A DNA stretch of 14,385 bases from a virus (lineage: Duplodnaviria > Heunggongvirae > Uroviricota > Caudoviricetes), in IMG/VR virus record IMGVR_UViG_2713896833_000003, positions 1 to 14,385 of that record. The stretch is one strand, 5' to 3'. Positions 6,772-7,713 of the stretch are shown here, one piece after another (position 1 is the stretch's first letter; each line of letters opens with the position of its first letter). Position numbers and translations under genes: made by a program. The notes beneath the pieces are model-generated. The model saw nothing but the letters and a program-made list of their open reading frames with translations, was not told the DNA's origin and did not search any database.

Positions 6772-7713
6772 TCACCCCCTGAATCCTGCCGGGATCTGGC
6801 TGTAGTCCACGTTGTCGTAACTGGCTTTGAAGTACGGGTCTTCGCGTTTTTCGGTGTACGTGCTGACGGACGGCGATAAGCGCAGGGAAAGCTCATCCCA
6901 TTTTTCCCGCAACTTCGACGGGCTGAGCACGTTACGGCACCAGAACGGATCGCGGCTGACGCGGCTGTACATCTCGCAGATTTGTTTGTGAGTACGACCA
7001 TCCTGCACACACATCAGGCGAATTTCGTTTGCCCAGGCTGTCCAGTTCGGTTCTTTGGGACGAACCACCTCGCCGTCACATTCGGCGGCCTGCTCGTACA
7101 GGGCAATGATTTTTTTCCAGAGCCACTGTGCACAGGTCAAATCATCCTGCGTTCCCCACTGGCGCTTTTTAGGGCTGAATACAACCGCATCAGGATGGCG
7201 AGTTAAAAAATCCTGTTCAGCCGTCTGCGTGTCCGGTTGCGAAGCGTCCGGACGAGAAGTTTTTTTATCTGACGGATCATGTTTTGATTTTACTGACGGA
7301 TCCCCACCAGATTCTGACGGGTGAAAACCCGCTTTTTTGCCAGATTTCGACGCATCAAATTTTGACGGGTCAGATTTTGATGCGTCAGATTTTGACGGGT
7401 CAGAATCTGACAGTTGAGAAAATGCCGCTGCCTGAAGCTTCGCAACGTTAAGCTGATAAACATTCGACGCATTGCGGTTACCCTGGCGACGCGCCTTACG
7501 CGTTAACCAGCCTTCTGCTTCCAGCCGTGCGATAGCCGTTCTGACGGTACTCATCCCCGCGCCAATCTGGCGGGCAATGGTTTCAATTGATGGCCAGCAC
7601 ACACCTTCGTCATTACTGAAATCAGCCAGGCGGGCCATAATTGCCACGCTGGATAATTTCATGCCTGATGCAGCGCAACCATCCCATACATAGCCGGTTA
7701 ATTTAGTGCTCAT
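6772..7713 (-). CDS. Phage O-like replication initiator (N-terminal HTH DNA-binding domain, repeat linker, C-terminal DnaT-like domain)
   Basis: 313-aa ORF; N-terminal wHTH segment SVAIMARLADFSNDEGVCWPSIETIARQIGAGMSTVRTAIARLEAEGWL; central pentapeptide repeats (SDPSK/SDASK) encoded by tandem 15-bp DNA repeats; GAGG SD upstream of ATG at 7713. Confidence 0.7.
   Translation of the reverse strand: MSTKLTGYVWDGCAASGMKLSSVAIMARLADFSNDEGVCWPSIETIARQIGAGMSTVRTAIARLEAEGWLTRKARRQGNRNASNVYQLNVAKLQAAAFSQLSDSDPSKSDASKSDPSKFDASKSGKKAGFHPSESGGDPSVKSKHDPSDKKTSRPDASQPDTQTAEQDFLTRHPDAVVFSPKKRQWGTQDDLTCAQWLWKKIIALYEQAAECDGEVVRPKEPNWTAWANEIRLMCVQDGRTHKQICEMYSRVSRDPFWCRNVLSPSKLREKWDELSLRLSPSVSTYTEKREDPYFKASYDNVDYSQIPAGFRG
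7262..7414. repeat. Iteron-like tandem repeats (unit about 15 bp, TCAGATTTTGACGGG and variants, roughly 8 copies) inside the replication initiator gene; candidate origin
   Basis: Repeats tcaaattttgacggg / tcagattttgatgcg / tcagattttgacggg / tcagaatctgacagt plus degenerate upstream copies (…ctgacgga…); analogous to ori-lambda iterons within gene O. Confidence 0.5.

Follow-up and report, generated by a model that had tools for sequence, protein, structure and literature searches.

Does a run of short tandem repeats inside a phage initiator gene serve the protein, or is it the DNA itself that has been selected? This question is raised by the 14,385-bp stretch of DNA analysed here in full (positions 1 to 14,385 of IMG/VR virus record IMGVR_UViG_2713896833_000003; hereafter the window), which is the early region of an SfII/SfIV-like lambdoid prophage and carries an O-like replication initiator gene (Table 1). 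An earlier inspection of the DNA without database searches (the sequence-only reading) had pointed to iteron-like 15-bp repeats in this gene and taken them for the likely replication origin of the element. We estimate a probability of roughly 0.8 that the segment 7231-7419, in the linker-coding part of the gene, is the replication origin of this prophage, a reading supported by several lines of comparative evidence: conservation at the DNA level, co-inheritance with the winged helix-turn-helix (wHTH) domain of the initiator, a sole cluster of sites in the SfIV genome and distinct dyad repeats in other initiator subfamilies. The 15-bp repeats are most likely the initiator binding sites of this origin, as in lambda, because what is conserved in them is the DNA and not the protein. 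The D(P/A)SKS peptide that they encode would largely be a by-product, namely a spacer of disordered type in which the DNA sites determine the choice of codons.

The presence of 15-bp tandem repeats inside the O-like gene was confirmed by Tandem Repeats Finder (TRF), which described 7341-7404 as either 4.3 copies of a 15-bp period (81% matches) or 2.1 copies of a 30-bp period (88%). The consensus CAGATTTTGACGGGT occurs six times in the 14.4-kb window with up to three mismatches, every time within 7308-7409; the expectation from shuffled sequences was 0.42, and none of 200 shuffles reached six. With a cut-off of 11 bits, a weight matrix derived from the family recovered seven units on the coding strand (7396-7410, 7381-7395, 7366-7380, 7351-7365, 7336-7350, 7303-7317 and 7273-7287), and eight TGAYGS cores could be read from the sequence (at 7270, 7294, 7314, 7348, 7363, 7378, 7393 and 7408). 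The "eight or so" copies of the sequence-only reading are thus a fair count of cores, but just five units are contiguous and well matched, with dispersed copies extending down to approximately 7270. Each unit has dyad symmetry (TCAGAATCTGA) and follows a 6+2+6+1 pattern, in which inverted 6-bp half-sites (TCTGAC/GTCAGA) are separated by 2-bp and 1-bp spacers. Since the units are inverted half-sites, the matrix matches both strands, with scores for the array of 11.5-23.9 bits on the coding strand and 12-18 bits at the same places on the opposite strand. At 7399-7411, GTCAGAATCTGAC reads as a perfect 13-bp palindrome. An A6 tract parts the array from the isolated dyad at 7303-7321. Read as codons, the 15-bp unit encodes S-K/E/D-S-D-x; the array units encode SDSDPSKSDASKSDPSKFDASKS (residues 102-124) and are followed by looser DPS-containing units up to residue 161, in line with the D(P/A)SKS-type linker originally described in this gene.

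This concentration of sites is not restricted to the window. Of 13 weight-matrix hits in the complete SfIV genome (39.8 kb), 12 fell in one 130-bp cluster inside the O gene, against 1.1 hits in total for the shuffled genome. At least three direct repeats of approximately 15-24 bp, at or in the initiator gene and unique in the replicon, are the mark of iteron-type theta origins, and this is what was found here. SfIV was isolated as a serotype-converting phage of S. flexneri (PMC3851460). Its O protein being 99.7% identical to that of the window, SfIV would represent a working replicon in a close relative, and we count this in favour of the origin.

The O-like protein matched phrog_391, "replication initiation O-like", from end to end (residues 1-313, E 8.6e-136), with other PHROG matches to "DnaD-like helicase loader" and "replisome organizer" families. 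Specifically, Pfam HTH_36 was found at residues 23-70 (E 4.3e-11, 42.9 bits vs a cut-off of 25), weaker Pfam matches in the N-terminal domain being to GntR/MarR/DnaD_N/RP-C; HTH_29, PaaX and others were reported as well. The presumed recognition helix STVRTAI spans residues 55-61, and its S55, T56, R58 and T59 are nearly invariant in the 80 relatives described below. The middle of the protein (residues 99-165) is of low complexity and rich in S, D, K and P. The C-terminal domain was aligned to lambda by tblastn with 35.6% identity (E 1e-18). In a BLASTP comparison with lambda O (E 3e-26), query residues 70-277 matched lambda residues 78-270, with nothing significant aligned before residue 70, and the lambda O N-terminal family, Phage_rep_O, gave no Pfam match in the protein. 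No curated NCBIfam family scored above its cut-off, and the only matches to solved structures were weak ones of MarR-type wHTH (E ~0.008), with no informative template. The C-terminal tail EDPYFKASYDNVDYSQIPAGFRG (residues 289-313, window 6775-6849) is 82% identical to that of initiators with a different C-terminal domain, namely SfV orf39 and the O proteins of cdtI and Stx2c phages, and 17 of the 80 relatives have a looser version, VDYS..P..GFR; this tail may be a small separate interaction module.

In order to separate selection on DNA from selection on protein, we compared 80 loci that encode the same N-terminal domain with 52-100% amino acid identity, taken from one genome per species across genera that include Escherichia/Shigella, Citrobacter, Kosakonia, Enterobacter, Kluyvera, Buttiauxella, Yersinia, Rahnella, Pantoea, Providencia, Proteus and Serratia; 80 near-identical viral contigs formed a second set. 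All intact relatives retain the repeats and a recognisable peptide motif. Third-base identity was measured over 3160 pairs, wherever both members shared the same four-fold (or six-fold) degenerate residue, and amounted to 0.785 in the linker, as opposed to 0.371 in the N-terminal domain and 0.422 in the first part of the C-terminal domain. This difference holds for pairs with less than 80% N-terminal identity. Synonymous sites in the N-terminal domain are randomised to saturation, with a mean top-codon fraction of 0.53 in conserved columns, up to six codons in invariant Ser columns and a Lys AAA:AAG ratio of roughly 60:40. Ser is encoded by TCA or TCT in 85% of cases in the linker vs 20% in the N-terminal domain, and AAA makes up 95% of linker Lys codons vs 58%. 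In the column profile, third-position information is high solely at residues 99-161 (window 7231-7419). There the third position often reaches the maximum of 2.0 bits at residues where the amino acid is just 53-80% conserved, and in several columns it carries more information than the first or second position.

The same bias was found when repeat units were defined by their peptide alone (S[KE][SF][DE]x, n=200). The first Ser was TCA in 196 of 200 units, Lys was AAA in 164 of 164, Glu was GAA in 36 of 36 and the later Ser (Ser3) was TCT in 139 of 160; neither AAG nor GAG was used once. This synonymous choice of TCA...TCT creates the dyad TCAGA-A-TCTGA. The adjoining block reads CCG-YCA-GAA-TCT-GGN-GGG-GAT-CCG-TCA-GTA-AAW-TCA, of which the portion CCG YCA GAA TCT GGN GGG was found in 72 of the 80 relatives (GAA in 65/72, TCT in 68/72), with Asp as GAT in 72/72, Val as GTA in 71/71 and TCA in 59/59. 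Where Ser has been replaced by Pro, Leu or Gln, the third-position A is retained. In phiP27, Stx2_KH16-043 and a Citrobacter prophage, TCAGAATCTGR persists in another reading frame and is read as LQNL or RQNL.

These observations bear directly on the possibility that the repeats are a by-product of a repetitive, disordered D-x-S-K-S linker, shaped by protein selection or replication slippage and devoid of function as DNA. The linker is indeed of low complexity, its length varies in 15-bp (5-aa) steps among near-identical phages, and its peptide motif can be recognised in all relatives. The array itself gains or loses 1-2 units in this way; 73 of 80 such phages have the same length, and the variants are +1, +2, -1 and -2. 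However, synonymous sites vary far less in the linker than in the domains that flank it in these genes, AAG and GAG are missing from 200 units, the third base stays where the amino acid has been replaced, and the motif persists when the reading frame has changed. Slippage would make codons uniform inside one lineage, but it would not lead different genera to settle on identical codons, and other subfamilies whose linkers have quite different peptides still carry dyad tandem repeats. A purely peptide-level explanation is ruled out by the codon choice, the retained third bases, the frame change and the dyad-making synonymous choices, and we regard this by-product explanation as extremely improbable. 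The sequence-only reading would have been undermined by homologues that keep the peptide and lose the DNA repeat; in the 80 diverged homologues the opposite was found, the DNA of the linker being conserved beyond what the peptide needs. An overlapping gene was also considered as the cause of the third-position conservation and rejected, as no one of the five alternative frames stays open throughout the 79 relatives: frame +1 always contains stops, including a conserved TAA, and the best antisense frame is open in 32 of 79.

Conservation of a nucleotide sequence within a gene could also reflect its mRNA, and an element in the O transcript, formed by a long imperfect hairpin over the array together with a hairpin at the dyad, might control its translation, its stability or termination. 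Compared with shuffled sequences, the folding of the 189-nt segment has z = -5.53, and a terminator-like hairpin followed by T6 is present on the antisense strand (7318-7331). The strong folding, however, follows automatically from alternating inverted half-sites, and the best dyad has a 1-nt centre that makes the inner pairs impossible in RNA. Among 61 distinct sequences of this dyad (7303-7321), 88% of cells are dyad-paired, but covariation did not exceed that of shuffles (0.080 vs 0.089; 408 of 500 shuffles scored as high) and the pair 12-24 was unpaired in 29; it is the sequence, not the pairing, that is conserved there. Changes in array copy number would moreover alter the global hairpin, and Rfam returned no match other than mir-5880 at 30.7 bits vs a gathering score of 97, a hit we discarded as a palindrome artefact. 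Overall, an RNA-level role as the cause of the conservation appears very unlikely. The antisense feature consists of CGGGTGAAAACCCG followed by CTTTTTTG on the plus strand (window 7318-7340), an intrinsic-terminator-like hairpin antisense to O that sits between the array and the conserved dyad; terminator-like hits in the region numbered 6 vs 2.8 +/- 1.6 by chance, within about two standard deviations. On the coding strand of 7231-7419, the promoter and terminator scan found nothing.

If the segment acts as DNA, which protein does it serve? Across the relatives the wHTH domain is the sole constant genetic partner of the motif. The cassette of wHTH domain and repeats is joined to at least four unrelated C-terminal domains, which are lambda-O-like in approximately 16 of the 80 relatives, of the DnaD-like "conserved phage C-terminal" type in approximately 59, of the phiP27/SfV type in 3 and of a fourth type in 2. 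The genes upstream and downstream of O vary and include Dam methylases or, in phiP27, DnaC and DnaB. Furthermore, in HTH_36 initiators whose recognition helices differ, the same position is occupied by other dyad tandem repeats: GTGCAGGAGWTGCAC in SfV, GGGCAGGAGCTGCCC in phi24B and GTGACAAAATGTCAC in Vibrio D75 (three copies each), TGCCATCTGATGGCA in Klebsiella RothC (four copies), and repeats of their own in ZF40 and Pseudomonas phi2. Among the eight HTH_36 initiators examined, Burkholderia BgVeeders33 was the one exception, with no repeats. The peptides encoded by these other repeats (GGAGAA, GSAGDS) are unrelated to that of the window.

A second short motif, GAACCAGTCA, was observed after the subfamily repeats, in 2-3 copies in SfV, Vibrio D75 and Klebsiella RothC and in one copy in phi24B (positions 1810-1849 of locus L167, 1468-1495 of L175 and 1508-1548 of L177). 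It resembles GATCCGTCAG, of which the window family has two copies (window 7270-7279 and 7294-7303), and the two may represent a common post-iteron element.

The segment might nevertheless be a DNA site with a role other than that of an origin, such as a recombination junction for initiator domains, or a site for Dam/SeqA, a nucleoid protein or another phage regulator. It lies at the exact boundary where the different C-terminal domains join the same N-terminal domain, it contains a conserved pair of GATC sites 24 bp apart in a family in which dam genes often stand beside O, and distant subfamilies have a related motif (GAACCAGTCA / GATCCGTCAG) after their repeats. Recent recombinational spread, however, would conserve every codon position alike, and here the third is invariant and the first and second vary. 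The neighbouring genes differ while the wHTH domain stays, and tandem dyads that differ from one subfamily to the next are what binding of a cognate initiator predicts, which favours initiator sites over another kind of DNA site. We thus consider an exclusively non-origin role unlikely, although less so than the two explanations discussed above; such roles and origin function could coexist.

The most conserved part of the proposed origin is not the copy-variable array but 7255-7326, which comprises the 19-bp dyad and the two GATC-bearing 24-bp repeats. At least two GATC sites are present in the linker of 72 of 79 relatives, 24 bp apart in 66 cases, and the density of GATC is 10.2/kb in the linker vs 3.5/kb in the rest of the gene. 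Dam methylase genes adjoin O in SfII, SfV, phiNP, YeP1 and Klebsiella phage 1; neither the window nor SfIV has a dam gene. The lowest duplex stability of the region also falls within 7255-7302, the least stable 30-bp stretch beginning at 7262 (z = 1.87, top 2.9% of the window); among 50-bp stretches the best z is 1.35, and 9% of those in the window are less stable.

Based on these results, we propose the following scheme. The early rightward operon, whose order of cro, cII-like, ymfM-like and O genes is observed, would be transcribed through the site and yield the initiator. Its winged-helix domain, probably as dimers, would bind the array at 7336-7410 and the dyad at 7303-7321 to form an O-some-like complex, a step suggested by the DNA-level conservation, the co-inheritance with the wHTH domain and the lambda precedent. 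The A-tract and GATC repeats (7255-7302) could then be the likeliest place for strand opening and/or methylation-dependent control, although the indications for this are weak. Finally, the lambda-O-like C-terminal domain would recruit a helicase; as no P, DnaC or DnaB gene is found nearby, host DnaB-DnaC or an unrecognised phage partner would have to serve.

Lambda provides the precedent. Four iterons are annotated in the lambda record at 39034-39118 inside O (38686-39585), and the corresponding O codons 117-145 align with the repeat region of the window, so that the parallel drawn in the sequence-only reading holds. In lambda and the Stx phages, the iterons inside O are bound by O and required for replication, synonymous iteron mutants being among the experiments (PMC7466680). 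As in ori-lambda and the six-iteron Stx origins, the window has tandem dyad repeats within the ORF (open reading frame) of the initiator, in the part that separates its DNA-binding domain from its C-terminal domain. It shares with lambda an O-type C-terminal domain, a location in a pR-type early operon after cro and a cII-like gene, and A-rich Lys codons on the coding strand after the repeats. As in lambda and the Stx phages, gain or loss of a repeat adds or removes linker residues (PMC7466680). In contrast with lambda, the N-terminal domain is HTH_36 instead of Phage_rep_O, the repeat sequence is unrelated, the 15-bp units abut directly whereas the 18-bp lambda iterons are spaced 20-24 bp, the window family has the conserved GATC pair, and the ORFs that come next are PerC-like, LexA_DNA_bind and DUF968/HNH/RusA-like, with no P directly downstream. 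To the right of the lambda AT-rich region, at 39162-39181 (positions 563-582 of our extract L172), a near-palindrome TCGTCAGAGAATTCTGGCGA resembles the window dyad CCGTCAGAATCTGGTGG, and Providencia and Proteus relatives with a lambda-type C-terminus keep the lambda-like residues SSQNSxESSDxP at the point of the dyad.

Other systems offer partial parallels. Replisome organizer genes of Gram-positive phages (SPP1, with oriL in gene 38, and lactococcal phages) contain embedded origins; their products bind repeats in their own gene and are built of modules, the N-terminus binding DNA and the C-terminus acting in recruitment. Likewise, 59 of the 80 relatives of the window protein have a DnaD-like/"conserved phage C-terminal" domain. 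The hosts and repeat sequences differ, and those phages encode an adjacent loader and helicase, which the window element does not. The oriL-dependent replication of SPP1 is the subject of PMC5737612. An HTH_36-type DNA-binding domain is shared with the Rep proteins of the Paracoccus plasmids pAES1, pAES7, pMARC3 and pMOS2, described in a paper that also discusses iterons (PMC3832669). The repeats of the window are translated as part of the initiator, unlike those of typical iteron plasmids. In the latter, the rep gene itself contains no iterons, and Rep regulates its own expression via inverted repeats. Dam-dependent origins, of relevance solely to the more far-reaching proposal made below, include E. 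coli oriC, with SeqA, and P1 oriR, with its GATC heptamers. They resemble the proposed origin in its conserved core GATC and in the phage dam genes beside O in many relatives; the differences are that just two GATC sites are present and that a dam gene is lacking from the window and SfIV.

Several findings weigh against the identification of 7231-7419 as an origin. No gene for a helicase or helicase loader (P, DnaC, DnaB) was detected in the window by Pfam and PHROG scans, and no helicase, loader or primase is recognisable among the 54 annotated SfIV genes, of which the O-like gene is the sole evident one for replication. Literature searches returned no described origin, and no report of binding or origin activity, for this phage group; the annotated features of the lambdoid phage records compared include no origin for this group, and the SfIV genome paper makes no mention of one. 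The half-site spacing of 6+2+6+1 is tighter than that of typical winged-helix dimers, and the unusually good folding of the segment's mRNA (z = -5.5) makes an RNA-level role conceivable. A lambda-type AT-rich unwinding region of approximately 40 bp is lacking, the minimum GC being 0.40 over 60 bp, and short A/T runs are found instead. The adjoining T-rich stretch of the sequence-only reading does exist as T7 at 7260-7266, but it is short and far weaker than the AT-rich tract of lambda. DnaA boxes (TTWTNCACA with at most one mismatch) were not enriched over chance (38 vs 32.7 expected), with none within 7121-7996; such boxes are common, though not universal, near iteron-type theta origins.

Table 1 Features of the 14,385-bp window discussed in the text
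Feature	Position	Strand	Basis or remark
EcoRII-like endonuclease	1728-2942		
Dcm-type methylase	2977-4452		Partner of the EcoRII-like endonuclease
GIY-YIG ORF	4817-5356		
ORF resembling a RusA'-HNH/DUF968 fusion	5272-5958		Pfam, PHROG
LexA-DNA-binding-domain (LexA_DNA_bind) ORF	5955-6314	minus	
PerC-like ORF, 164 aa	6281-6775	minus	Domain/PHROG matches
O-like replication initiator gene, 313 aa	6772-7713	minus	ORF list and translation, phrog_391, SfIV match
C-terminal domain homologous to that of lambda O, residues 166-277	6883-7218	minus	tblastn, BLASTP
Segment under DNA-level (non-protein) constraint, proposed origin core; linker residues 99-161	7231-7419		Third-position information content
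Two 24-bp direct repeats	7255-7302		Coding strand GATCCGTCAGTAAAATCAAAACAT / GATCCGTCAGATAAAAAAACTTCT; each with GATC (7275, 7299) and an A-rich run
T7 run	7260-7266	plus	A7 on coding strand, Lys150-Lys151 codons
Isolated 19-bp dyad, most conserved site	7303-7321		Coding strand CCCGTCAGAATCTGGTGGG; weight matrix 18.9 bits
T6 run	7333-7338	plus	
Five contiguous 15-bp units, candidate iterons	7336-7410		Coding strand TCA-RAW-TCT-GAY-nnn; TRF, repeat/inverted-repeat finder, weight matrix
N-terminal winged-helix DNA-binding domain, residues 1-98	7420-7713	minus	Pfam HTH_36
112-aa ORF (ymfM-like in operon order)	7723-8061	minus	
CII/YmfL-like gene	8058-8615	minus	
cro-like gene	8608-8868	minus	
LexA-type cI repressor	8966-9658		Divergent from cro/O genes
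xis and int	12851-14325		

The surroundings of the gene indicate what kind of element is involved. SfII, SfIV and several E. coli phages are approximately 97% identical to the window over 6000-9000, phage matches are almost absent across 1-5400, and the phage late region to the left of 5272 has been replaced by the GIY-YIG ORF and the EcoRII-like restriction-modification pair. No Q, lysis or structural genes were found in the window prophage. At a related E. coli locus, GIY-YIG and restriction-modification genes lie at the far end of a deleted prophage, at the tRNA-Thr beside proA. The window prophage is probably a deletion remnant, which may be capable of excision and amplification but not of particle formation. 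The initiator gene and repeats are both intact. Autonomous replication upon induction, which the sequence-only reading had implied, is uncertain because the element has no gene for a helicase or for its loader and apparently lacks the Q, lysis and structural genes.

Circular records with related initiator genes were considered as evidence of autonomous replication and set aside as uninformative, since they look like excised or assembled prophage DNA. OR902851.1 (L169), a 15.2-kb circular E. coli "plasmid", is an excised e14 (icd fragment, mcrA, pin/hin, tfaE) in which the O gene (8001-8342) is cut after approximately codon 78 and the repeats are absent. The repeats are likewise absent from two E. 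coli chromosomes (L060 and L084), where the same N-terminal 79 residues are fused to terminase-like sequence in a YmfN-type fusion. NZ_CP148542.1 (L170), a 16-kb circular E. coli record, consists of a lambdoid immunity and early region alone, in the manner of lambda-dv; its initiator (1675-2650) has 66% N-terminal identity and a different 15-bp dyad repeat, TTGACCCGTCAA, with a frameshift at codon 158 that may be a sequencing error or mark a pseudogene. Lastly, the 64-kb circular record NZ_CP146678 is an SfII-like phage genome.

A more far-reaching proposal, which we put forward only tentatively and consider doubtful, is that the portable cassette of a DNA-binding domain and an approximately 190-bp linker-coded origin, combined with at least four C-terminal domains, defines a class of loader-less ("initiator-solo") lambdoid replicons. 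In these, a second, more widely conserved element, made of two GATC-bearing GATCCGTCAG copies 24 bp apart and similar to GAACCAGTCA in the SfV, phi24B, Vibrio and Klebsiella phages, would act as a Dam/SeqA-gated opening or loading site. If true, this would explain why dam genes are so often found beside O.

Overall, this analysis narrows the probable origin to approximately 190 bp for widespread prophages of the Enterobacterales, including Shigella SfII/SfIV and e14-like elements. A lambda-style origin inside an initiator gene is of a kind already known, and the result is in that sense well supported but expected. Its interest rests on the portable cassette, on the absent helicase loader and on a clear signature of dual coding, with third codon positions more conserved than the encoded amino acids, which offers a means of locating origins in the initiator genes of other phages. 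The lambda-O-like C-terminal domain normally recruits P-DnaB, yet the window and SfIV encode no P, DnaC or DnaB, which raises the question of how the helicase is loaded. The intact initiator and origin in a seemingly defective prophage suggest possible amplification after excision, or interference with related phages.

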